This document shows, piece by piece, positions 2,402-21,296 of a stretch of 64,000 nt of DNA; position 1 is the stretch's first letter, and every line of letters begins with the position of its first letter. Both the position numbers and the translations under genes were made by a program. The stretch lies in assembly GCF_000027125.1 (NCBI RefSeq), contig NC_017626.1. One strand, written 5' to 3'. The notes under the pieces were generated by a model. The model was not told the DNA's origin, made no database searches, and was given only the letters and a program-made list of their open reading frames with translations. Origin of the DNA: Escherichia coli 042. Lineage in GTDB: Bacteria > Pseudomonadota > Gammaproteobacteria > Enterobacterales > Enterobacteriaceae.

Positions 2402-5465
<3,064 letters not shown>

Positions 5466-6324: not shown

Positions 6325-9300
6325 ATGACAGAACAACAAAAATTGACCTTTACGGCCTTGCAGCAGCGGCTGGATTCGCTGATGCTGCGCGACAGACAGC
6401 GTTTTTCTCGCCGTCTGCACGGCGTGAAGAAGGTTAAAAATCCTGATGCACAACAGGCCATTTTCCAGGAGATGGCGAAAGAGATTGACCATGCGGCAGG
6501 GAAAGTCCTGCTGCGTGAAGCGGCACGACCGGAAATCACTTATCCGGACAATTTGCCGGTTAGTCAGAAAAAGCAGGACATTCTCGAAGCAATTCGTGAT
6601 CACCAGGTAGTGATCGTCGCCGGGGAAACGGGTTCCGGTAAAACGACTCAGCTACCGAAAATCTGTATGGAGCTGGGCCGCGGGATTAAAGGGCTGATCG
6701 GCCATACCCAGCCGCGTCGTCTGGCGGCGCGAACGGTGGCGAACCGTATTGCGGAAGAGCTGAAAACGGAGCCGGGCGGTTGCATCGGTTACAAAGTGCG
6801 TTTCAGCGATCACGTAAGTGATAACACGATGGTCAAGCTGATGACCGACGGTATCCTGCTGGCGGAGATCCAGCAAGACCGCCTGCTGATGCAGTACGAC
6901 ACCATCATTATTGACGAAGCGCACGAACGCAGCCTGAATATCGATTTTCTGCTCGGCTATTTGAAAGAGTTGCTGCCGCGGCGTCCTGACCTAAAAATCA
7001 TTATCACTTCCGCGACTATCGACCCGGAACGCTTTTCGCGCCACTTTAATAATGCGCCGATTATCGAAGTCTCCGGTCGGACCTATCCGGTGGAAGTGCG
7101 CTATCGCCCGATTGTTGAAGAAGCCGATGATACCGAGCGCGATCAGTTGCAGGCGATTTTTGACGCTGTAGACGAACTGAGCCAGGAAAGCCCTGGCGAC
7201 ATTCTGATCTTTATGAGTGGTGAGCGGGAAATTCGCGATACCGCCGATGCGCTGAACAAGCTGAACTTACGCCATACCGAAATCTTGCCGCTTTATGCGC
7301 GGCTTTCGAACAGCGAACAGAACCGCGTGTTCCAGTCGCACAGTGGACGGCGCATTGTGCTGGCGACCAACGTCGCGGAAACCTCGCTGACCGTACCGGG
7401 GATTAAATACGTTATCGACCCAGGTACGGCGCGTATCAGCCGCTACAGCTATCGCACTAAAGTGCAGCGTTTGCCGATTGAGCCGATTTCTCAGGCGTCT
7501 GCCAACCAGCGTAAAGGCCGCTGTGGTCGTGTGTCAGAAGGGATCTGTATTCGTCTCTATTCGGAAGATGATTTCCTGTCGCGCCCGGAGTTTACCGATC
7601 CGGAGATTCTGCGTACCAACCTGGCCTCGGTTATTTTACAGATGACCGCGTTGGGGCTGGGTGATATCGCCGCGTTCCCATTTGTCGAAGCGCCGGATAA
7701 ACGTAATATCCAGGATGGCGTGCGTCTGCTCGAAGAGCTGGGCGCGATCACCACTGATGAACAGGCCAGCGCCTATAAACTGACGCCGCTCGGTCGCCAG
7801 CTTTCGCAATTGCCTGTCGATCCTCGTCTGGCGCGTATGGTGCTGGAAGCGCAAAAACATGGCTGCGTGCGTGAGGCGATGATTATCACGTCCGCGCTCT
7901 CCATCCAGGATCCGCGCGAACGACCGATGGACAAACAGCAGGCATCGGACGAAAAACATCGTCGCTTCCACGACAAAGAATCCGACTTCCTCGCGTTTGT
8001 AAATCTGTGGAATTATCTTGGCGAGCAGCAAAAGGCGCTTTCTTCCAACGCCTTCCGTCGCCTGTGTCGTACCGATTATCTCAACTATCTGCGCGTGCGC
8101 GAATGGCAGGATATCTACACCCAGTTGCGCCAGGTAGTAAAAGAACTTGGCATTCCAGTTAACAGCGAACCGGCGGAGTATCGCGAAATTCACATCGCCT
8201 TACTGACCGGTTTGCTTTCCCATATCGGCATGAAAGATGCCGATAAACAAGAATATACCGGCGCACGTAACGCGCGTTTTTCCATCTTTCCCGGTTCTGG
8301 TTTATTCAAAAAGCCGCCGAAATGGGTAATGGTGGCGGAACTGGTAGAAACCAGCCGCCTGTGGGGGCGCATTGCGGCACGCATCGATCCAGAATGGGTG
8401 GAGCCAGTTGCTCAGCATTTAATTAAACGCACCTACAGCGAACCACACTGGGAACGGGCGCAGGGCGCGGTGATGGCAACGGAAAAAGTCACCGTTTACG
8501 GGTTGCCGATTGTTGCCGCGCGTAAGGTCAACTACAGCCAGATCGATCCGGCGTTATGTCGTGAACTCTTTATTCGCCACGCGCTGGTGGAAGGTGACTG
8601 GCAGACACGTCATGCATTCTTCCGTGAAAACCTGAAACTGCGGGCTGAAGTGGAAGAACTGGAACACAAAACACGTCGCCGCGATATTCTGGTGGATGAC
8701 GAAACGCTGTTTGAGTTTTATGACCAGCGCATCAGCCACGATGTGATCTCTGCACGTCACTTCGACAGCTGGTGGAAAAAAGTCAGCCGCGAAACGCCTG
8801 ATTTGCTCAACTTTGAAAAGAGCATGTTGATCAAAGAAGGGGCGGAAAAGATCAGCAAGCTGGATTACCCGAACTTCTGGCATCAGGGCAATCTCAAACT
8901 GCGTTTGAGCTATCAGTTTGAGCCGGGGGCAGATGCTGACGGTGTGACTGTGCATATCCCGCTGCCGTTACTTAACCAGGTTGAGGAGAGCGGGTTTGAG
9001 TGGCAGATCCCCGGTCTGCGCCGCGAACTGGTGATTGCTCTGATTAAATCGTTGCCGAAACCAGTACGCCGTAATTTTGTGCCCGCGCCAAACTACGCCG
9101 AAGCTTTTTTAGGCCGCGTCACACCGCTGGAATTGCCGTTGCTCGACAGCCTTGAACGAGAGCTGCGGCGGATGACTGGCGTCACCGTTGACCGCGAAGA
9201 CTGGCACTGGGATCAGGTGCCCGATCACCTGAAAATCACCTTCCGCGTGGTGGATGACAAAAACAAGAAGCTAAAAGAAGGGCGCTCATTACAGGATCTG

Positions 9301-10227
9301 AAAGATGCTCTGAAAGGCAAAGTGCAGGAAACGCTGTCTGCGGTGGCGGATGACGGTATCGAGCAGAGCGGCTTACATATCTGGAGTTTTGGGCAACTGC
9401 CGGAAAGCTACGAACAGAAGCGTGGCAACTACAAAGTGAAGGCGTGGCCAGCGTTGGTGGATGAGCGCGACAGCGTGGCGATCAAACTGTTTGATAACCC
9501 GCTGGAACAAAAGCAGGCAATGTGGAACGGTCTTCGCCGTTTACTGCTGCTGAATATTCCGTCGCCAATCAAATATTTGCATGAGAAGTTGCCAAACAAA
9601 GCCAAACTTGGGCTGTACTTTAACCCGTATGGCAAAGTGCTGGAGCTGATAGACGACTGTATCTCCTGCGGTGTGGATCAACTGATCGACGCCAATGGTG
9701 GCCCGGTCTGGACGGAAGAAGGCTTTGCTGCGCTGCATGAAAAAGTCCGCGCTGAACTGAACGACACGGTGGTGGATATTGCGAAGCAGGTCGAGCAAAT
9801 CCTTACGGCAGTGTTCAATATCAACAAACGCCTGAAAGGGCGGGTGGATATGACCATGGCGCTGGGGCTTTCTGACATTAAAGCGCAGATGGGCGGGCTG
9901 GTGTATCGCGGTTTTGTCACTGGCAACGGTTTTAAACGGCTGGGCGACACGCTGCGTTATTTGCAGGCGATTGAAAAACGACTGGAAAAACTGGCGGTTG
10001 ATCCGCATCGCGACCGTGCTCAGATGCTGAAAGTCGAAAATGTCCAGCAGGCGTGGCAGCAGTGGATCAACAAACTGCCGCCTGCACGTCGTGAGGATGA
10101 AGACGTGAAAGAGATCCGTTGGATGATAGAAGAGTTGCGCGTCAGCTACTTCGCTCAACAACTTGGTACGCCTTATCCGATTTCGGATAAGCGTATTTTG
10201 CAGGCGATGGAGCAGATTAGCGGTTAA
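6325..10227 (+). CDS. hrpA: ATP-dependent RNA helicase HrpA (DEAH-box)
   Basis: 1300-aa ORF with Walker A GETGSGKTTQ, DEAH box and helicase C-terminal motifs. Confidence 0.96.
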   Translation: MTEQQKLTFTALQQRLDSLMLRDRQRFSRRLHGVKKVKNPDAQQAIFQEMAKEIDHAAGKVLLREAARPEITYPDNLPVSQKKQDILEAIRDHQVVIVAGETGSGKTTQLPKICMELGRGIKGLIGHTQPRRLAARTVANRIAEELKTEPGGCIGYKVRFSDHVSDNTMVKLMTDGILLAEIQQDRLLMQYDTIIIDEAHERSLNIDFLLGYLKELLPRRPDLKIIITSATIDPERFSRHFNNAPIIEVSGRTYPVEVRYRPIVEEADDTERDQLQAIFDAVDELSQESPGDILIFMSGEREIRDTADALNKLNLRHTEILPLYARLSNSEQNRVFQSHSGRRIVLATNVAETSLTVPGIKYVIDPGTARISRYSYRTKVQRLPIEPISQASANQRKGRCGRVSEGICIRLYSEDDFLSRPEFTDPEILRTNLASVILQMTALGLGDIAAFPFVEAPDKRNIQDGVRLLEELGAITTDEQASAYKLTPLGRQLSQLPVDPRLARMVLEAQKHGCVREAMIITSALSIQDPRERPMDKQQASDEKHRRFHDKESDFLAFVNLWNYLGEQQKALSSNAFRRLCRTDYLNYLRVREWQDIYTQLRQVVKELGIPVNSEPAEYREIHIALLTGLLSHIGMKDADKQEYTGARNARFSIFPGSGLFKKPPKWVMVAELVETSRLWGRIAARIDPEWVEPVAQHLIKRTYSEPHWERAQGAVMATEKVTVYGLPIVAARKVNYSQIDPALCRELFIRHALVEGDWQTRHAFFRENLKLRAEVEELEHKTRRRDILVDDETLFEFYDQRISHDVISARHFDSWWKKVSRETPDLLNFEKSMLIKEGAEKISKLDYPNFWHQGNLKLRLSYQFEPGADADGVTVHIPLPLLNQVEESGFEWQIPGLRRELVIALIKSLPKPVRRNFVPAPNYAEAFLGRVTPLELPLLDSLERELRRMTGVTVDREDWHWDQVPDHLKITFRVVDDKNKKLKEGRSLQDLKDALKGKVQETLSAVADDGIEQSGLHIWSFGQLPESYEQKRGNYKVKAWPALVDERDSVAIKLFDNPLEQKQAMWNGLRRLLLLNIPSPIKYLHEKLPNKAKLGLYFNPYGKVLELIDDCISCGVDQLIDANGGPVWTEEGFAALHEKVRAELNDTVVDIAKQVEQILTAVFNINKRLKGRVDMTMALGLSDIKAQMGGLVYRGFVTGNGFKRLGDTLRYLQAIEKRLEKLAVDPHRDRAQMLKVENVQQAWQQWINKLPPARREDEDVKEIRWMIEELRVSYFAQQLGTPYPISDKRILQAMEQISG

Positions 10228-10253
10228 CCCTGCTATTTGCCTGATAAATCTCA

Positions 10254-10286
10254 AACCCGGTAAGCATTTAGCGCCGGGTTTTTTCT
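10254..10286 (+). terminator. Rho-independent terminator downstream of hrpA
   Basis: Inverted repeat aacccgg ... ccgggtt followed by a T-run (ttttttc). Confidence 0.6.
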
Positions 10287-10457
10287 TTATGAATTCTGAA
10301 AAATAGCAAGGGCGGTACTATTTTACATAAGTTACATTCATACTCTGCCCATGGTAAACAGGACGTATTGCAATGAGTAGGCATGATATTTTAATGAGAT
10401 CGTATTATGAGCGAATAATAGAGCTTGATTGCGTCGGTCAGGCTTTAATCTCTTTCT

Positions 10458-10850
10458 ATGAAAAACTTCCAGAGGAAATTTTATCAGAAAATAATGGATT
10501 GGATTAATAGTATGAAAAATGTAGACAATATTATCTGGCATGATGGTGTTTTAGTTGAAACAAGAATGGAATGTCACCACGCCGGGTATAATTTTATATT
10601 GACGACAGAACTTTATGTTGATGAATTTACAGCCGGAAGGGAACGAAAAAGATTCGAGTTTACAGGAGTGGAACATTTATCGCAGGTTATGGATATTGCT
10701 GAGCTTATAGATAACCAAAACGCAGGTAATATTAAAGATGCGACAATTGTTTATAAGGCAAAGAAGTATGAAATTTCACTTCATTTGTTTGGCGGTTTTT
10801 TAAGTTTTACATTTAAAACCATGCGAGTTGTTGACAATGAATTTGAGTAA
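10458..10850 (+). CDS. Hypothetical protein, islet ORF A (start uncertain)
   Basis: 130-codon ORF in an AT-rich block; alternative starts at 10494 and 10512; no recognisable motif; its stop overlaps ORF B. Confidence 0.45.
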   Translation: MKNFQRKFYQKIMDWINSMKNVDNIIWHDGVLVETRMECHHAGYNFILTTELYVDEFTAGRERKRFEFTGVEHLSQVMDIAELIDNQNAGNIKDATIVYKAKKYEISLHLFGGFLSFTFKTMRVVDNEFE

Positions 10851-11286
10851 TGCCAAATGCGACAAATTGTCTTTTTATGAAGAAAAAATCCGCTGGCGAA
10901 TGCGTCGGCAAATCTCGAATGCAGAGGCAATATTTTACGAGAATCAGGAAGAACACATTCAGCGCTTTTTAGGCAGATATACCTGTCGCAAACCGGTTCT
11001 TGTTTATTGGGAAAGTGAACAAAGATGGACATCTGTAAACGGTCTGGAAGTGATGAGTATGTTTGATGGGCATTGTCATCACATCTACCTTGATGATATC
11101 AATAAAAAAATACAAGCTGAATTACCTGAAGATAAAACATTAGGTTTCAAACGTCAATTGCAATTTTTCAGTTTAGGGGATGAGAAGATTAGAATATGGG
11201 TGCCACAGGGGGAATTATATTTCGCATTAATGAATGTATTGCAGATGTTCCCCCTGAAGAAAATGGTTAATGACTGGACAAGGTAA
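10828..11286 (+). CDS. Hypothetical protein, islet ORF B
   Basis: 152-codon ORF (alternative start 10837) overlapping the end of ORF A, suggesting translational coupling; AT-rich; no recognisable motif. Confidence 0.45.
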   Translation: MLTMNLSNAKCDKLSFYEEKIRWRMRRQISNAEAIFYENQEEHIQRFLGRYTCRKPVLVYWESEQRWTSVNGLEVMSMFDGHCHHIYLDDINKKIQAELPEDKTLGFKRQLQFFSLGDEKIRIWVPQGELYFALMNVLQMFPLKKMVNDWTR

Positions 11287-11404
11287 TTTCAAATCACAGT
11301 AATGTCCATCGATTATACATGGTACGTAAACAGACTCGCACCGTTTTTGCAGAAGGTTAATGTGTGTCTATTGAGTGCAGTCTCATATATGAAGGGGTAT
11401 TGAC

Positions 11405-11782
11405 ATGGATGAATGTTTTATAAATATCACTCCGACTTCATTGTCTTTTAAAAACGCCGATCTGTCAGATTTAAGCTATAAAAATGCCAGGCTTGAACTT
11501 ACCCTGATATGCCCGGCGATCAAGTCAGAAGTTAAGTTATCATTTGACTGGATACATTCATTTCGTGTTACTGACGAAGGTGATTTGTTAGGAATGTCAG
11601 GAATGCACGGTATTAACCAAACAGGTATCTATAGAGTAGTGAATTCCGCCTATTTTTCATGGTTTACTATGCAAAGTTGTGAAATTTATAAAAATAATGT
11701 GATCGAGCATTATGTCATTGCCACGTCAAATGATGTTATTGATGTTTTATCAACAGTTTCTCCGCAAATACAGTATGACTAA
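11405..11782 (+). CDS. Hypothetical protein, islet ORF C
   Basis: 125-codon ORF on the same strand, 118 bp downstream of ORF B; AT-rich; no recognisable motif. Confidence 0.4.
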   Translation: MDECFINITPTSLSFKNADLSDLSYKNARLELTLICPAIKSEVKLSFDWIHSFRVTDEGDLLGMSGMHGINQTGIYRVVNSAYFSWFTMQSCEIYKNNVIEHYVIATSNDVIDVLSTVSPQIQYD

Positions 11783-11897
11783 AACCAGTGTCTGGTTCGC
11801 GATGGCGAGGTAGAAAAAGCATCATCTTCCTTTCAGAGTGCTCCGCTTCTCATTATTATCTCACGCAGTATTCTTAAGGAAACGATAAGGAGGAACC

Positions 11898-12698
11898 ATG
11901 AACATTACCCCGTTTCCGACGCTTTCGCCGGCAACCATAGATGCCATAAATGTTATCGGTCAGTGGCTGGCGTAGGATGATTTCTCCGGTGAGATGCCGT
12001 ATCAGGCCGATTGCGTGATCCTTGCAGGCAATGCGGTTATGCCAACTATCGATGCGGCATGCAAGATTGCCCGCGATCAGCAAATTCCTCTACTGATTAG
12101 TGGTGGTATCGGTCACTCGACAACTTTTTTGTATAGTGCCATCGCACAGCATCCGCACTACAACACTATCCGCACCACTGGCAGAGCAGAAGCTACCATC
12201 CTGGCGGATATCGCTCATCAGTACTGGCACATTCCGCATGAAAAAATCTGGATTGAAGACCAGTCAACAAACTGCGGTGAAAACGCACGCTTTAGCATCT
12301 CGCTATTGAATCAGGCCGTAGAACGAGTTCATACGGCTATCGTTGTTCAGGACCCCACAATGCAGCGGCGCACGATGGCGACGTTCCGCCGTATGACTGG
12401 GGACAATCCCGATGCACCACGCTGGTTAAGTTATCCCGGATTCGTTCCTCAGCTAGGAAACAACGCAGACAGTGTAATCTTTGTTAATCCGTTGCAAGGA
12501 TTATGGCCGGTTGAGCGTTATCTCTCACTACTCACTGGCGAGCTGCCACGTTTACGCGATGATAGCGATGGCTACGGTCCACGCGGGCGAGATTTTATCG
12601 TTCACGTTGATTTTCCGGCAGAAGTCATCCAGGCATGGCAAACGCTGAAACACGATGCGGTGCTCATCGAGGCGATGGAAAGTCGCTCGTTACGTTAA
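11898..12698 (+). pseudogene. ydcF: ydcF (DUF218 family) carrying an in-frame amber codon at codon 26
   Basis: Strong SD (aaggagg) plus ATG at 11898; frame reads MNITPFPTLSPATIDAINVIGQWLA, then TAG at 11973..11975, then continues in the same frame; next ATG at 11994 gives the 234-codon ORF. The two parts total 266 codons, the length remembered for K-12 YdcF. Confidence 0.6.
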
Positions 12699-12894
12699 AA
12701 ATTGCCCGTTTGTTAACCATTTGTTTGCAAACGGGCATGACTCCTGACGTTTATTTCTGCCTTTTATTCCTTTTACACTTGTTTTTATGAAGCCCTTCAC
12801 AGAATTGTCCTTTCACGATGCCGTCTCTATGATGATTGATGTTAATTAACAATGCATTTACCAATAACAAACATATAAATCACAGGAGTCGCCC

Positions 12895-14334
12895 ATGTCA
12901 GTACCCGTTCAACATCCTATGTATATCGATGGACAGTTTGTTACCTGGCGTGGAGACGCATGGATTGATGTGGTAAACCCTGCTACAGAGGCGGTCATTT
13001 CCCGCATTCCCGATGGTCAGGCCGAGGATGCCCGTAAGGCAATCGATGCAGCAGAACGTGCACAACCAGAATGGGAAGCGTTGCCTGCCATTGAACGCGC
13101 CAGTTGGTTGCGCAAAATCTCCGCCGGGATCCGAGAACGCGCCAGTGAAATCAGTGCGCTGATTGTTGAAGAAGGGGGCAAGATCCAGCAGCTGGCTGAA
13201 GTCGAAGTGGCTTTTACTGCGGACTATATCGATTACATGGCGGAGTGGGCACGGCGTTATGAAGGCGAGATTATTCAAAGCGATCGTCCAGGAGAAAATA
13301 TTCTTCTGTTTAAACGTGCGCTTGGCGTGACTACCGGCATTCTGCCGTGGAACTTCCCGTTCTTCCTCATTGCCCGCAAAATGGCTCCCGCTCTTTTGAC
13401 CGGTAATACCATCGTCATTAAACCCAGTGAATTTACGCCAAACAATGCGATTGCTTTTGCCAAAATTGTCGATGAAATAGGCCTTCCACGCGGTGTGTTT
13501 AACCTTGTGCTAGGGCGTGGTGAAACCGTTGGGCAAGAACTGGCGGGTAACCCAAAGGTCGCAATGGTCAGTATGACAGGCAGCGTCTCTGCAGGTGAAA
13601 AGATCATGGCGACTGCAGCAAAAAATATCACAAAAGTGTGTCTGGAATTGGGTGGTAAAGCACCAGCTATCGTAATGGACGATGCCGATCTTGAACTGGC
13701 AGTCAAAGCCATCGTTGATTCACGCGTCATTAATAGTGGGCAAGTGTGTAACTGTGCAGAACGTGTTTATGTACAGAAAGGCATTTATGATCAGTTCGTC
13801 AATCGGCTGGGTGAAGCGATGCAGGCGGTGCAATTTGGTAACCCCGCTGAACGCAACGACATTGCGATGGGGCCGTTGATTAACGCCTCGGCGCTGGAAA
13901 GGGTCGAGCAAAAAGTGGCGCGCGCAGTAGAAGAGGGGGCGAGAGTGGCGTTGGGGGGCAAGGCAGTAGAGGGGAAAGGATATTATTATCCGCCGACATT
14001 GCTGCTGGATGTTCGCCAGGAAATGTCGATTATGCACGAGGAAACCTTTGGCCCGGTGCTGCCAGTGGTCGCATTTGACACGCTGGAAGAGGCTATCGCA
14101 ATGGCTAATGACAGTGATTACGGCCTGACCTCATCAATCTATACCCAAAATTTGAACGTCGCGATGAAAGCCATTAAAGGGCTGAAGTTTGGTGAAACTT
14201 ACATTAACCGTGAAAACTTCGAAGCTATGCAAGGCTTCCACGCCGGATGGCGTAAATCCGGTATTGGCGGCGCAGATGGTAAACATGGCTTGCATGAATA
14301 CCTGCAGACCCAGGTGGTTTATTTACAGTCGTAA
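12895..14334 (+). CDS. aldA: Lactaldehyde dehydrogenase
   Basis: 479-aa ORF matching AldA; aldehyde dehydrogenase catalytic Cys/Glu motifs. Confidence 0.96.
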   Translation: MSVPVQHPMYIDGQFVTWRGDAWIDVVNPATEAVISRIPDGQAEDARKAIDAAERAQPEWEALPAIERASWLRKISAGIRERASEISALIVEEGGKIQQLAEVEVAFTADYIDYMAEWARRYEGEIIQSDRPGENILLFKRALGVTTGILPWNFPFFLIARKMAPALLTGNTIVIKPSEFTPNNAIAFAKIVDEIGLPRGVFNLVLGRGETVGQELAGNPKVAMVSMTGSVSAGEKIMATAAKNITKVCLELGGKAPAIVMDDADLELAVKAIVDSRVINSGQVCNCAERVYVQKGIYDQFVNRLGEAMQAVQFGNPAERNDIAMGPLINASALERVEQKVARAVEEGARVALGGKAVEGKGYYYPPTLLLDVRQEMSIMHEETFGPVLPVVAFDTLEEAIAMANDSDYGLTSSIYTQNLNVAMKAIKGLKFGETYINRENFEAMQGFHAGWRKSGIGGADGKHGLHEYLQTQVVYLQS

Positions 14335-14344
14335 TGAGTGAAAG

Positions 14345-14367
14345 AGGCGGAGGTTTTTCCCTCCGCC
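14345..14367. terminator. Hairpin between convergent aldA and gapC
   Basis: Inverted repeat aggcggagg / cctccgcct with a 5-nt loop. Confidence 0.5.
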
Positions 14368-14375
14368 TTTGCGCG

Positions 14376-15377
14376 TCAGAGTTTAGCGAATTTTTCGAGG
14401 GTGCGAATAAGCTGCGTGACGAAGCCATATTCGTTATCGTACCAGGCGACCGTTTTCACCAGTTGTAAATCGCCCACGGCGGTAATTTCCGTTTGCGTGG
14501 CATCAAACACCGACCCGAAATGGCTGCCAATGATATCAGAAGAGACTATTTCTTCATCGGTATAACCAAATGACTCGTTATTGTTTGTCGCCTTTTTAAG
14601 CGCGTTGTTCACCTCTTCGGCAGTCACTTTTTTTCCAAGAATAGACACCAGTTCAGTCACCGAACCTGTTTTCACGGGTACGCGTTGCGCATGACCTTTC
14701 AGTTTGCCGCTCAGTTCCGGGATCACCAGACCAATGGCTTTTGCCGCACCTGTAGTGTGGGGAATGATATTTTCTGCCGCTGCACGTGAAGCGCGTAGAT
14801 CTTTACCTCGCGGACCATCCACCAGTGACTGAGTGCCGGTATAGGCATGAATGGTCGTCATCGTGCCGACTTCTATTCCGAAACTGTCGTGCAAGGCTTT
14901 GGCCATCGGTGCAAGACAGTTAGTGGTGCATGACGCCACGGAAACAATGGTGTCGTTGCCATCCAGTGTGTCGTCATTGACGTTATAAACGATGGTTTTC
15001 ATTTCACCGGCAGGGGCGGAAATCAACACTTTCTTCGCACCAGCATCAAGATGCGCCTGCGATTTCTCGGCGGAGGTATAAAAGCCAGTACATTCGACAA
15101 TGATTTCTGCGCCTTTCGCTTTCCATGGAATATTTTTAGCCTCTTTTTCGGCGTAAACCGCGATACTTTTTCCATCAACGATAAGTGAATCTTCCGTAAA
15201 ATCAACGCGCCAGGGGAACGGACCATAGTTTGAATCATGTTTCAGCAGATAGGCGAGAATTTTTGGGGAAGTGAGATCATTAATAGCAACAATGTCTATG
15301 TTGCTTTTGACTTCAAGTAATCGACGCAACACCAGTCGACCGATACGACCAAAACCGTTAATACCAACTTTACTCAT
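14376..15377 (-). CDS. gapC: Glyceraldehyde-3-phosphate dehydrogenase C (intact)
   Basis: Uninterrupted 333-aa ORF with NAD-binding GFGRIGR and catalytic SCTTNC motifs. Confidence 0.9.
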
Positions 15378-15565
15378 GGTCTTCTCCTGTCAGGAACGTT
15401 CGGATGAAAATTGATCCTTTCCAGGCTTAGACCAGGATGGCGGGATGGGCAATCTACATTCTTGCCGTGAAACGTAACGTACTGAAAACGGGTGAACAAT
15501 ATTTAATGAAATTTTAAGAAAAGCTCGTTATGTTAACGGAAAATTGTTTTAAAGCAGGAAATGTT

Positions 15566-16096
15566 ATGGAAAATAAATACTCAAGGTTACAAATCAGCAT
15601 TCACTGGCTGGTCTTTTTGCTGGTTATCGCAGCGTATTGCGCAATGGAGTTTCGTGGTTTCTTCCCACGTAGCGATCGGCCGCTCATCAACATGATTCAT
15701 GTTTCCTGTGGCATCACAATTCTCGTGCTGATGGTGATTCGTCTTTTGTTAAGGCTGAAATACCCAACCCCGCCGATTATACCTAAGCCAAAACCGATGA
15801 TGACGGGACTGGCGCATTTGGGACATTTGGTGATCTATCTCCTGTTTATTGCGCTGCCAGTGATTGGTTTGGTGATGATGTATAACCGGGGCAACCCGTG
15901 GTTTGCGTTTGGTATGACGATGCCTTATGCATCAGAGGCCAATTTCGAACGGGTTGATAGCTTAAAGTCGTGGCATGAAACGCTGGCAAATCTGGGATAC
16001 TTTGTCATCGGGTTGCACGCTGCGGCTGCACTGGCACACCACTATTTCTGGAAGGACAACACACTTCTACGCATGATGCCGCGTAAACGTTCCTGA
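15566..16096 (+). CDS. cybB: Cytochrome b561
   Basis: ORF from 15530; start placed at MENKYSRLQISIHW (176 aa); multi-TM, His-rich haem ligands. Confidence 0.9.
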   Translation: MENKYSRLQISIHWLVFLLVIAAYCAMEFRGFFPRSDRPLINMIHVSCGITILVLMVIRLLLRLKYPTPPIIPKPKPMMTGLAHLGHLVIYLLFIALPVIGLVMMYNRGNPWFAFGMTMPYASEANFERVDSLKSWHETLANLGYFVIGLHAAAALAHHYFWKDNTLLRMMPRKRS

Positions 16097-16340
16097 AGGA
16101 TATTTAAAGAAAACGCCTGTACTAAAACCGACCCGTGGTACAGGCGAAGAATACGGGTCTACATCGGAAGCGCCTATTATATTTATTTGTGTGACAAATA
16201 AAACCATAATCCTGGTCCATACGTCCATCTGGCTTATCTTTAATCAATTCACCCGATCTTTGATCTCATCAACGGTATCAAAATAAACCAGCGTATAACG
16301 TTCAAATCGAACATAAGATTCGATAAACCATGGAGGTTAT

Positions 16341-16514
16341 ATGAAAAAACTGGCACTCATCTTTGTTATAGGAGCGCTTGTTTCCTTTTATGCCGATGCC
16401 GGGCGCAAACCCTGTTCTGGTTCGAAAGGGGGGATCTCACACTGTACGGCAGGCGGCAAATTTGTCTGTAATGATGGTTCTATTAGTGCATCGAAAAAAA
16501 CATGCACTAACTGA
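16341..16514 (+). CDS. ydcA: Small secreted protein YdcA
   Basis: 57-aa ORF MKKLALIFVIGALVSFYADAGRKPCSG... with signal peptide and SD ggagg; below the 60-aa cutoff of the ORF track. Confidence 0.75.
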   Translation: MKKLALIFVIGALVSFYADAGRKPCSGSKGGISHCTAGGKFVCNDGSISASKKTCTN

Positions 16515-16560
16515 AGCGTAAAAAGGGGTGCCATGAGAAAATGAATCTGCTAGTCAGATG

Positions 16561-16579
16561 CGCGGGGAAAATCCCCGCG
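16561..16579. terminator. Perfect hairpin between ydcA and hokB
   Basis: cgcgggg aaaat ccccgcg palindrome immediately 3' of hokB on the minus strand. Confidence 0.6.
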
Positions 16580-16586
16580 CTTGCCC

Positions 16587-16736
<150 letters not shown>

Positions 16737-16759
16737 AGCCTTTCTCCTTGCCGGATGGC

Positions 16760-16830
16760 GGGTAAGAGGCTAAGATCTGAATTGCTAGGTTCATTCGTTG
16801 GCCTCGGTTGATAGAAATATCGGTCGGGGC
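16760..16830 (+). ncRNA. sokB: Probable sokB antisense RNA region (approximate)
   Basis: Position antisense to the mokB/hokB leader, by analogy with hok/sok loci; boundaries not determined. Confidence 0.3.
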
Positions 16831-17134
16831 CTTCGTCTTTCTGATTCCCGGTTAGCCTGAAAACAGAAAGTCTCAGGCACCCGTGAGCATCCTATGTGGT
16901 TTCCTTAGGGACGAAAATAATCACCTGACGAAATTGCGTGCTGTTTTCCAGAATTTTTCGTCATTCGGTTTAGCCAGTTTAATCATTCGTTACTCTCTTC
17001 ATTCCAATGGCATTATTCTTCTCTGCCATAATTGTTGTAAAAATGTGACGCAAAGAGGTTTTTGGTCGTAAGAAATTACCGTCAAGTGCCGATGACTTTC
17101 TATCAGGAGTAAACCTGGAAGAGAGTCAACGGTA

Positions 17135-18775
17135 ATGAATACAACTCCCTCACAGCGATTAGGTTTTTTGCATCACATCAGGCTGGTTCCGTTATTTGCC
17201 TGCATTCTTGGCGGTATCTTAGTTCTATTCGCATTAAGTTCAGCTCTGGCTGGCTATTTCCTCTGGCAGGCCGATCGCGATCAGCGTGATGTTACTGCGG
17301 AGATTGAGATTCGGACCGGGTTAGCGAACAGTTCAGATTTTTTGCGTTCAGCCCGGATCAATATGATTCAGGCCGGTGCTGCGAGTCGTATTGCGGAAAT
17401 GGAAGCAATGAAGCGAAATATTGCGCAAGCCGAATCGGAGATTAAACAGTCGCAGCAAGGTTATCGTGCTTATCAGAATCGGTCGGTGAAAACACCTGCT
17501 GATGAAGCCCTCGACACTGAATTAAATCAACGCTTCCAGGCTTATATCACGGGTATGCAACCGATGTTGAAATATGCCAAAAATGGCATGTTTGAAGCGA
17601 TTATCAATCATGAAAGTGAGCAGATCCGACCGCTGGATAATGCTTATACCGATATTTTGAGCAAAGCCGTTAAGATACGTAGCACCAGAGCCAACCAACT
17701 GGCGGAACTGGCCCATCAGCGCACCCGCCTGGGTGGGATGTTCATGATTGGCGCGTTTGTGCTTGCCCTGGTCATGACGCTGATAACATTTATGGTGCTA
17801 CGTCGGATCGTCATTCGTCCATTGCAACATGCCGCACAACGGATTGAAAAAATCGCCAGTGGCGATCTGACGATGAATGATGATCCGGCAGGTCGTAATG
17901 AAATCGGTCGCTTAAGTCGTCATTTACAGCAAATGCAGCATTCACTGGGGATGACAGTAGGGACCGTTCGACAGGGCGCGGAAGAGATTTATCGTGGCAC
18001 CAGCGAAATTTCCGCTGGCAATGCGGACCTTTCATCTCGCACCGAAGAACAAGCGGCGGCAATTGAACAAACTGCCGCCAGCATGGAGCAACTCACTGCG
18101 ACGGTGAAACAGAATACAGATAACGCGCATCATGCCAGCAAACTGGCGCAGGAGGCTTCTATTAAAGCCAGCGATGGCGGGCAGACGGTTTCCGGTGTAG
18201 TAAAAACGATGGGCGCTATCTCCACGAGTTCGAAGAAAATTTCCGAGATCACCGCCGTCATCAACAGTATTGCTTTCCAGACGAATATTCTGGCACTGAA
18301 TGCTGCCGTTGAAGCCGCGCGAGCGGGTGAGCAAGGGCGTGGATTTGCCGTTGTCGCCAGCGAAGTACGGACACTCGCAAGCCGCAGCGCCCAGGCGGCG
18401 AAAGAGATTGAAGGCTTGATCAGTGAATCAGTCAGGTTAATTGACCTGGGGTCGGATGAGGTAGCAACGGCAGGGAAAACCATGAGCACTATTGTTGATG
18501 CCGTCGCGAGTGTCACACATATCATGCAGGAAATCGCCGCCGCCTCGGATGAACAAAGCAGAGGCATAACACAGGTTAGCCAGGCGATTTCTGAAATGGA
18601 TAAGGTGACGCAACAGAATGCTTCTCTGGTAGAAGAGGCCTCAGCGGCGGCGGTGTCCCTTGAAGAACAGGCGGCACGATTAACTGAGGCGGTGGACGTA
18701 TTCCGTCTGAACAAACATTCTGTGTCGGCCGAACCTCGCGGAGCGGGTGAACCAGTTAGATTCGCTACGGTGTGA
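17135..18775 (+). CDS. trg: Methyl-accepting chemotaxis protein III (ribose/galactose)
   Basis: 546-aa ORF with two TM segments, HAMP domain and conserved MCP signalling domain. Confidence 0.95.
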
Positions 18776-18812
18776 AAATGTTAAAGGAGGGATCGACAGA
18801 TCCCTTCACCTT

Positions 18813-19736
18813 TCAGAACGGCATTGATTTTCGAATAGCGTTAATCATCAACTGGCAACCAGAAGAGAACGTCGCATCTACGCGGGTCAGTATTCCAATC
18901 GGTTCGCCTGCACCATGACCCGGAACAGGCAGGGCCACCAGCGTGGCATGACGCAGGTCGTCTTTTACAGCGCCAGAAGGGACAAACCACACGTAGTCGT
19001 ATTCAACCGTAAGTTGACGAGATAGCGAAGCAGACAGTGTTTCGATACAGCCCGAAGGAATTTTACAGCCCTGGCTCTGCACTAATGCATCTGAATGCTG
19101 GCGTGGCGCAGTGCCTTCTGGTGATACAACAACCGGCCATTCCAGCACCCGGCTTAGCGTTACGTTCTCCTGAAGTAGCGGGTGATTAGGGCGGACAACC
19201 AGCTTCAGCGATTCAAGAAACAGCAGTTCGTAATTAAGCCCGGTCATCAGTTCAGGATCTGACATCCGACCAATGCCGATATCGATTTCCCCGGTTTTTA
19301 AACCTGCCAGAATCATAGGGTTACTCATTGTCGCAACTTGCAAGGTCGTCTCTTTTTGTTGCTGATGAAACTGACCTATAACCGAAGGTAATATCCCCAG
19401 TGCCGCAGTAGGTAGTGCACCAACCCTGACGACATCATTATTAAGACCTTCTTTACGATGAAGCGACTGTCCGGCAGTGTTGATGGCGTCAAGAACTCTG
19501 ACTGCATGCGTTAAAAATTGTTCGCCGGGTAAGGTAAGTTGCGCCCCCTGACGACCACGCTCAAACAAGCGAGCGCCCGTCAGTTGCTCCAGTTCATTCA
19601 ATGTCTTAGAGAGCGCAGGTTGACTCAAATTAAGGGTTTCAGCCGCGCGCCCCAAAGTTCCTTGTTGTGCGACAGCTACGAATGTATGAAGGTGGCGCAA
19701 ACGGATGCGCTGACTAAACAGACTATTTTTTTCCAT
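18813..19736 (-). CDS. ydcI: LysR-family transcriptional regulator YdcI
   Basis: ORF extends to 19805; start placed at MEKNSLFSQRIRLRHLHTFVAVAQ (307 aa); N-terminal HTH. Confidence 0.88.
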   Translation of the reverse strand: MEKNSLFSQRIRLRHLHTFVAVAQQGTLGRAAETLNLSQPALSKTLNELEQLTGARLFERGRQGAQLTLPGEQFLTHAVRVLDAINTAGQSLHRKEGLNNDVVRVGALPTAALGILPSVIGQFHQQQKETTLQVATMSNPMILAGLKTGEIDIGIGRMSDPELMTGLNYELLFLESLKLVVRPNHPLLQENVTLSRVLEWPVVVSPEGTAPRQHSDALVQSQGCKIPSGCIETLSASLSRQLTVEYDYVWFVPSGAVKDDLRHATLVALPVPGHGAGEPIGILTRVDATFSSGCQLMINAIRKSMPF

Positions 19737-19952
19737 AAGCGATGTTAAAAACGAAGCGGTGTCGCTGACAAGTGAAGTTGTTTGATTATGATAACTTGAT
19801 TGCAAAATATTATTAACAATTAAAGCAATTGTATTACATCAAAATGGGTAATATTAATGTTTTCGCGGCGAGATCACAGTTTGCAAATTCTTCCCGCCAG
19901 AGTGAATGCGGTTACCTACACTCCAGATTACTGACCACTGGAGGCAGACATT

Positions 19953-21296
19953 ATGGCGAACAGCATCACGGCGGATGAGATTCGGGAACAGTTTTCGCAG
20001 GCAATGTCAGCCATGTACCAGCAAGAAGTTCCGCAGTACGGCACGCTGCTGGAACTGGTAGCTGATGTGAATCTGGCTGTGCTGGAAAACAATCCTCAAC
20101 TGCACGAAAAAATGGTAAATGCAGACGAGCTGGCGCGACTGAATGTTGAACGTCATGGGGCGATTCGCGTTGGGACTGCACAAGAGCTTGCTACTCTTCG
20201 GCGGATGTTTGCCATTATGGGGATGTACCCGGTGAGCTATTACGATCTCTCGCAGGCGGGCGTGCCGGTACATTCCACAGCATTTCGGCCCATTGATGAT
20301 GCTTCTCTGGCGCGTAATCCCTTCCGCGTTTTTACCTCCTTACTCCGCCTTGAGCTTATCGAGAACGAAATTTTGCGCCAGAAAGCGGCGGAGATTCTGC
20401 GTCAGCGCGATATCTTCACCCCACGTTGTCGACAACTGTTAGAGGAATATGAGCAGCAGGGCGGTTTTAACGAAACACAGGCACAGGAGTTTGTGCAGGA
20501 AGCCCTGGAAACGTTTCGCTGGCACCAGTCAGCGACGGTGGATGAAGTAACCTATTGCGCCTTGCATAACGAACATCGGCTGATTGCTGATGTGGTCTGT
20601 TTTCCTGGATGCCATATCAACCACCTGACGCCACGCACGCTGGATATTGACCGGGTGCAGTCGATGATGCCTGAATGCGGAATTGAACCCAAAATTCTGA
20701 TCGAAGGGCCGCCGCGCCGCGAGGTACCGATTTTACTACGCCAGACCAGTTTTAAAGCACTGGAAGAGACGGTGTTGTTTGCAGGGCAGAAACAGGGCAC
20801 GCATACCGCGCGCTTTGGTGAAATAGAGCAGCGTGGCGTGGCATTAACGCCGAAAGGACGACAACTGTATGATGATCTACTGCGGAACGCTGGAACCGGG
20901 CAGGATAATCTCACTCACCAAATGCATTTACAGGAAACCTTCCGCACTTTTCCTGACAGTGAGTTTTTAATGCGTCAGCAAGGGTTGGCATGGTTCCGGT
21001 ACCGTCTGACGCCTTCAGGTGAGGCGCATCGTCAGGCGATTCATTCCGGAGACGATCCACAGCCCTTAATTGAACGTGGTTGGGTAGTGGCGCAACCCAT
21101 TACCTATGAAGATTTCTTGCCCGTTAGCGCGGCGGGGATCTTCCAGTCAAATCTGGGTAATGAAACGCAGGCACGCAGTCACGGTAATGCCAGTCGCGAA
21201 ACATTTGAGCAGGCGTTGGGCTGCCCGGTTTTGGATGAGTTCCAGCTTTATCAGGAAGCGGAAGAACGCAGTAAACGTCGCTGTGGTTTGCTTTAA
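19953..21296 (+). CDS. ydcJ: DUF1338 family protein YdcJ
   Basis: 447-aa ORF at the conserved position, divergent from ydcI. Confidence 0.88.
   Translation: MANSITADEIREQFSQAMSAMYQQEVPQYGTLLELVADVNLAVLENNPQLHEKMVNADELARLNVERHGAIRVGTAQELATLRRMFAIMGMYPVSYYDLSQAGVPVHSTAFRPIDDASLARNPFRVFTSLLRLELIENEILRQKAAEILRQRDIFTPRCRQLLEEYEQQGGFNETQAQEFVQEALETFRWHQSATVDEVTYCALHNEHRLIADVVCFPGCHINHLTPRTLDIDRVQSMMPECGIEPKILIEGPPRREVPILLRQTSFKALEETVLFAGQKQGTHTARFGEIEQRGVALTPKGRQLYDDLLRNAGTGQDNLTHQMHLQETFRTFPDSEFLMRQQGLAWFRYRLTPSGEAHRQAIHSGDDPQPLIERGWVVAQPITYEDFLPVSAAGIFQSNLGNETQARSHGNASRETFEQALGCPVLDEFQLYQEAEERSKRRCGLL

Follow-up and report, generated by a model that had tools for sequence, protein, structure and literature searches.

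The stretch of Escherichia coli 042 DNA analysed in this report, 64,000 nucleotides in length and referred to here as the window, contains at positions 14376 to 15377 a gapC reading frame. The question raised by this locus is whether that frame specifies a working glyceraldehyde-3-phosphate dehydrogenase (GAPDH) or is a relic, as it is in E. coli K-12. We conclude, with a probability that we put at roughly 0.9, that 14376-15377 is an intact gapC gene whose product is a catalytically competent, NAD-dependent phosphorylating GAPDH of type I. It should be noted how the parts of this reading were arrived at: gene integrity, protein family, functional residues, prevalence and selection were computed here; activity is taken from a protein of 98.8% identity; and expression and physiological role we infer. 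To speak of a "second" GAPDH presupposes gapA elsewhere in the genome, and gapA is indeed located elsewhere in the E. coli genome; within the 64-kb window, tblastn searches detected no GAPDH paralogue, gapA included.

The gapC reading frame and its surroundings

The gapC coding sequence occupies positions 14376..15377 of the minus strand. The open reading frame listing gives a single uninterrupted frame that begins with the ATG at the 15377 end, includes the TGA stop and specifies 333 amino acids, and both domains of a GAPDH are matched within it, which bears out the statement of a first-pass annotation, made from the nucleotide sequence, that the frame is intact over 333 codons. Six nucleotides to the 5' side of the ATG is a putative Shine-Dalgarno sequence, AGGAG (15384..15388, minus strand). 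The convergent neighbour is aldA (aldehyde dehydrogenase A, 479 aa; 12895..14334, plus strand) and the divergent neighbour is cybB (cytochrome b561, 531 bp; 15566..16096, plus strand), both assigned from their reading frames and from the annotation of K-12 and of strain GF60; farther along, beyond cybB, are a gene for a small periplasmic protein, the hokB region and trg. The order aldA-gapC-cybB is the same in the window, in K-12 and in GF60, as is expected of gapC orthologues.

In the interval that separates the stop codon of aldA from that of gapC, RNA folding predicted a GC-rich hairpin with a 9-bp stem and a 6-nt loop (14345..14368), with a folding energy of -19.9 kcal/mol and a z score of -4.3; none of 200 shuffled sequences folded equally well. 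The hairpin is a probable bidirectional terminator shared by the 2 genes. On the gapC side its T-tail is weak, and for this reason a simple scan for terminators passed it over.

Family and functional residues of the product

The 2 Pfam domains were recognized with scores far above the gathering score, Gp_dh_N (PF00044) over residues 3-102 (E 1e-35) and Gp_dh_C (PF02800) over residues 155-313 (E 4e-58). The NCBIfam equivalog profile for type I GAPDH (TIGR01534; EC 1.2.1.12) was matched from positions 1 to 330 of its 330 by residues 3-325 of the protein, at 446.8 bits with a curated cut-off of 367.2, which places the protein within that equivalog.

We also tried, and rejected, more specific identities: GapA (PRK15425), with 301.8 bits against a cut-off of 662; the erythrose-4-phosphate dehydrogenase Epd/GapB, with 280.5 against 539 (PRK13535) and 277.8 against 530.55 (TIGR01532); and the ArsJ-associated GAPDH (NF033735), with 307.5 against 450, the neighbours here being aldA and cybB with no arsJ. 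Because its scores lie below those curated cut-offs, we assign GapC to a type I GAPDH subfamily that is neither GapA nor Epd. GapC has the fold, the catalytic chemistry and the two-domain architecture in common with GapA, the housekeeping glycolytic GAPDH, but the 2 proteins are of different subfamilies; GapC would represent the "bacterial" lineage of type I GAPDHs, separate from GapA and from Epd (GapB).

For individual residues we took the roles, and the numbering, from the crystallized E. coli enzyme, EcGAPDH1 (PMC8615399). The catalytic cysteine, Cys150 (14928..14930, minus strand), is present in its active-site motif, which is of the ASCTTNCL type, and the catalytic histidine, His177 (14847..14849, minus strand), is present in the sequence TTIHAYT. 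At the amino terminus we find the glycine motif of the NAD-binding Rossmann fold, INGFGRIGR, of which the segment NGFGRIGR makes up codons 7-14 (15336..15359, minus strand) and includes Arg11 and Ile12; the other NAD contacts, Asp34, Lys78, Ser120 and Asn315, are also in place. In GAPDHs, Asp34 favours NAD over NADP. Both phosphate sites are complete, the "Ps" site with Thr180, Thr182 and Arg232 and the "new Pi" site with Ser149, Thr151 and Thr209. The NAD-binding and catalytic cysteine motifs are therefore preserved, as had been noted previously for this DNA, and to these may be added the histidine. With this set of residues, Cys150 would attack glyceraldehyde-3-phosphate (G3P) with His177 serving as the base, a hydride would be transferred to NAD+, and phosphate would then cleave the thioacyl intermediate to yield 1,3-bisphosphoglycerate.

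Comparison with the K-12 pseudogene

The K-12 gapC pseudogene (b1416/b1417, gapC_1/gapC_2) is at the same locus, between the same neighbours, as the gene in the window. RefSeq lists the homologous 1001 bp of BW25113 as a pseudogene, "frameshifted; internal stop". When the 2 sequences were aligned, we observed 44 differences (95.6% DNA identity), of which 2 are disabling in K-12. One is an AAA to TAA change at gene nucleotide 115, which converts codon 39 to a premature stop; the other is a deletion of 1 bp in the run of 7 A residues at gene nucleotides 744-750, which leaves A6 and shifts the frame. Both lesions are absent from the window allele, in which codon 39 (15261..15263, minus strand) is AAA, for lysine, and the A7 homopolymer (14628..14634, minus strand), within Gly248-Lys249-Lys250, is complete. 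The alignment with K-12 had been proposed as a check in the first-pass annotation, which described K-12 gapC as a split pseudogene; the pseudogene annotation and the 2 aligned lesions agree with that description, and K-12 gapC is disrupted rather than intact.

At the A7 run the window and K-12 differ by a single A, and errors in homopolymer length are common in some long-read assemblies, such that the intact state could in principle be an artefact of sequencing or assembly and the true gene could be frameshifted like that of K-12. We regard this explanation as exceedingly improbable. The codon-39 stop, which is independent of the A7 run, is also absent from the window; the GF60 gene, which was assembled independently, is identical in sequence; and A7 is present in 9 of 10 other intact alleles that we sampled (described below), with a nearby polymorphism in ST95-32 having blocked an exact-string match. 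Since 43 further positions differ from K-12, the window carries a different allele and not the K-12 allele with an error in it.

One other difference may be mentioned. K-12 gapC (3001-4001 of its extracted locus, L001) specifies Gly18 in place of the Arg18 of the window (LRRLL to LGRLL, gene nucleotide 52). Arg18 is retained in the 10 sampled intact alleles, and the K-12 glycine is consistent with a relaxed constraint after inactivation.

Intact and broken alleles among E. coli genomes

Matches to gapC with 90-100% identity and a coverage of 80% of the gene or more were found in 5,409 of 5,426 complete E. coli genomes, and the high full-length DNA identity to the locus across E. coli is that expected of orthologues. 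To the same group belong the GapC of O157:H7 (UniProt P58072) and the RefSeq "gap" of most E. coli, which have the same location between aldA and cybB, the same 333 codons and 95-98% DNA identity; the "gap" alleles differ from the window protein by 2-5 amino acids. The gene has been used as a species marker for E. coli, with citation of P58072 (O157:H7) and of Hidalgo et al. 1996 (PMC10614358).

Short strings of sequence were used to count the alleles. The 35-mer that is centred on the K-12 TAA stop was present in 1,154 of the 5,426 genomes (21%), the 35-mer with AAA at codon 39 in 3,715, and the A6 frameshift context of K-12 in 1,050. The AAA and TAA 35-mers jointly cover 4,869 of 5,417 matching genomes, and about 550 match neither. 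At least in part, these are explained by a synonymous TCC to TCT polymorphism, which we observed beside an intact AAA in Combat11I9 and again in the truncated gapC copy of SCPM-O-B-7615; O55:H7 is also unmatched by both 35-mers. Forty matches were sampled at even intervals, of which 31 were ungapped and 1002 bp long, 8 were frameshifted (1000-1001 bp) and 1 was truncated beside an IS1 element. Ten ungapped matches were checked, and all 10 are annotated as intact with RefSeq protein accessions and translate without a stop; they include alleles from Nissle 1917, ST95-32, O111:H8 and O55:H7 and from giant-panda, urine, chicken and faecal isolates. From the complement of the TAA count, the sample of 40 matches and the 10 annotations, on which our estimate rests, gapC is intact in roughly three of every four sequenced E. 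coli. The intact gene is thus the majority and normal state in E. coli and is not peculiar to the 042 window, and it is most likely the ancestral state of the species.

It follows that there is nothing unusual about 042 in this regard; an intact, functional-looking gapC was already known. Environmental isolates have been reported to carry an intact gapC, with the lesions of K-12 described as decay in a laboratory strain (PMC2949598); the work of Espinosa-Urgel and Kolter 1998 is cited there and also in a passage of PMC1796617. With regard to the origin of the lesions, we found TAA and A6 alleles in isolates from patients, pigs, chickens, a migratory bird, a frog and a mouse. Because the K-12 lesions are carried by many natural isolates, they represent a polymorphism of lineages and not laboratory decay. 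This result corrects a common simplification: laboratory domestication did not produce the K-12 pseudogene allele, a natural polymorphism carried by about 21% of complete genomes.

Inactivation has also occurred in other ways. ECZP248 has a further frameshift in gapC, which is an independent event. In SCPM-O-B-7615 (L014, 2501-4678) only 198 bp of gapC remain, separated by an IS1A element from an aldA that is also truncated; apparently the 2 genes were destroyed by an IS-associated deletion that occurred independently. Since gapC has been lost repeatedly in nature, it is dispensable in at least some niches. In the aggregate, we think it fairly likely that gapC can be dispensed with under some conditions and has been lost by lineage, with the K-12 allele inherited in about a fifth of E. 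coli, and that elsewhere it is under strong purifying selection.

The window allele and selection on intact gapC

The window gapC is 100% identical to the gene of GF60 (WP_000048642.1), an isolate from chicken meat in Switzerland, and this was the only exact match among the 5,426 complete genomes; the next-best gene is 98.0% identical. Likewise, the 12 kb from 8000 to 20000 of the window are 100% identical to GF60 and at most 97.6% identical to any other of the 5,426 genomes. Because gapC and these 12 kb match GF60 only, the window seemingly comes from a rarely sequenced, divergent lineage of E. coli. Over the region compared, the sole difference that we saw between the window and GF60 is an IS1A insertion in the latter (L002, 1300-1997), at window position ~16326, between cybB and the gene for a periplasmic protein of 57 aa (16341-16514).

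The window and GF60 proteins have Arg57 (codon at 15207-15209), where Ser57 is found in the 10 other intact alleles, in K-12 and in the crystallized enzyme. Position 57 is outside the functional residues listed above. As a weaker addition to the reading of gapC as a gene lost by lineage, this rare Arg57 allele may have altered properties.

Compared with the 10 other intact alleles, the window gene has 18-40 synonymous and 2-5 non-synonymous differences, such that dN/dS is 0.027-0.037; for all pairs pooled the value is 0.042, with dS up to 0.19. The intact gapC alleles are under strong purifying selection. These low ratios argue against the idea that intact gapC is a silent relic.

Expression of the gene

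The gapC promoter is presumably located in the 188-bp region between the divergent gapC and cybB genes (15378..15565). A simple scan for consensus sigma-70 promoters detected none in 14250-15650, which includes this intergenic region. Observations from other strains bear on the matter. In K-12, the gapC-cybB region is the site of a sigma-S peak in ChIP-seq experiments (PMC4447067); inactivation of rpoS lowers the level of gapC transcripts, whose pattern places them with gluconeogenic and RpoS-dependent genes (PMC2759082); and gapC_1 is among the transcripts that changed, by ~5.6-fold, in a study of carbon- and energy-limited growth (PMC4512719). In EPEC, which has an intact gapC, the mRNA was detected and was lower in a csrA mutant (PMC6333774). 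By analogy with these strains, 042 gapC would most likely be expressed from the gapC-cybB region under RpoS control, in starvation or under environmental conditions.

These observations also bear on the proposal that the frame is intact yet cryptic, silent or untranslated, with GapA the sole working GAPDH and gapC decaying towards the pseudogene state seen in K-12. Such a gene might be expected to lack a consensus sigma-70 promoter upstream, as the scan suggests, and to be dispensable, as its repeated inactivation in E. coli lineages shows. However, a dN/dS ratio of ~0.03-0.04 at dS values of up to 0.19 is incompatible with long-term neutrality, and a good Shine-Dalgarno sequence is in place. 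Moreover, even the pseudogene locus of K-12 is transcribed and bound by sigma-S (PMC4512719, PMC4447067, PMC2759082), and the gapC mRNA of EPEC is both detectable and regulated (PMC6333774). We therefore consider a cryptic gapC to be improbable, and prefer the reading of gapC as an expressed and functional gene.

EcGAPDH1 is a gapC product

When the window protein was compared with solved structures, the best match was to PDB 7C5F, with 329 of 333 residues (98.8%) identical over the full length. This is EcGAPDH1 (PDB 7C5F, 7C5H, 7C5P and 7C7K, and mutants), which is the same as the window protein in length and register and in its catalytic, NAD-binding and phosphate-binding residues. The 2 proteins differ by I29V, R57S, K262Q and N265T, the window having Ile29, Arg57, Lys262 and Asn265, and none of these positions is among the functional residues that we checked. 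The name gapC occurs 0 times in the report on this enzyme (PMC8615399). Yet a common allele, WP_000048667.1 (HKUOPY1, O111:H8 1074-2 and RM9245), differs from the window at the same 4 positions, and since the differences of EcGAPDH1 are equal to those of this allele, we identify EcGAPDH1 as the product of gapC.

EcGAPDH1 oxidizes G3P in an NAD-dependent reaction, with a KM of 0.73 mM for this substrate; its activity is abolished by C150A and is reduced ~10^4-fold by C150S and ~8,000- to 10^4-fold by H177A (PMC8615399). Its crystal structures include complexes with NAD, with phosphate and with G3P; the thioacyl intermediate was also captured, and 1,3-bisphosphoglycerate was formed in crystals (PMC8615399). 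In effect, then, the enzymatic assay that one would wish to have for the window gene has already been done with a near-identical allele (PMC8615399). The assays were carried out at pH 10 and 50 C (PMC8615399), and these conditions say little about physiological role. The first-pass annotation had put forward the possibility of a second functional GAPDH in this strain, and this is accordingly supported by the functional residues, by the dN/dS values and by the 98.8% identity to an enzyme of known activity.

Possible physiological role of GapC

A different view would be that GapC is active, yet with another physiological substrate or direction, as a gluconeogenic, stress-specific or other aldose-phosphate dehydrogenase. 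There is a precedent in Epd (GapB), which proved to be an erythrose-4-phosphate dehydrogenase, and gapC adjoins an aldehyde dehydrogenase gene, aldA; also, as described above, its expression clusters with that of gluconeogenic and RpoS-dependent genes (PMC2759082). Against this, the protein falls under the cut-offs for Epd and for the ArsJ-associated enzymes and over that for generic type I GAPDHs, and EcGAPDH1, which is nearly the same protein, uses G3P and NAD+ as substrates (PMC8615399). We judge such a role to be unlikely, though less so than a cryptic gene.

Our preference remains for GapC as a GAPDH in the strict sense, which would be a conditionally used second enzyme and not the main glycolytic one. 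From the pattern of expression in other strains, it most likely would serve in stationary phase, in starvation or outside the host.

The result reveals no new kind of biology, and its main import is for correct annotation, K-12 being an unrepresentative reference for gapC. Where metabolic models, or inferences about gene essentiality, are derived from K-12 and applied to wild E. coli, a second GAPDH, probably induced by RpoS or by the environment, should be added.

Other observations

The hrpA-ydcF interval of the window and of GF60 contains extra DNA, at 10458-11782 of the window, that does not align to K-12. Within it are 3 small reading frames, of 130, 152 and 125 aa, none of which has a Pfam match; the last is annotated in GF60 as a hypothetical protein, WP_000343024.1.

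Five of the matches to the gapC locus are on records labelled as plasmid, and these could be mislabelled replicons or segments derived from a chromosome. In O111:H8 1074-2 and in ECCWS199, gapC is intact and aldA is annotated as frameshifted (1344-1602 onward in the extracted loci, L008 and L010); these could be real aldA pseudogenes or homopolymer errors in the assemblies.
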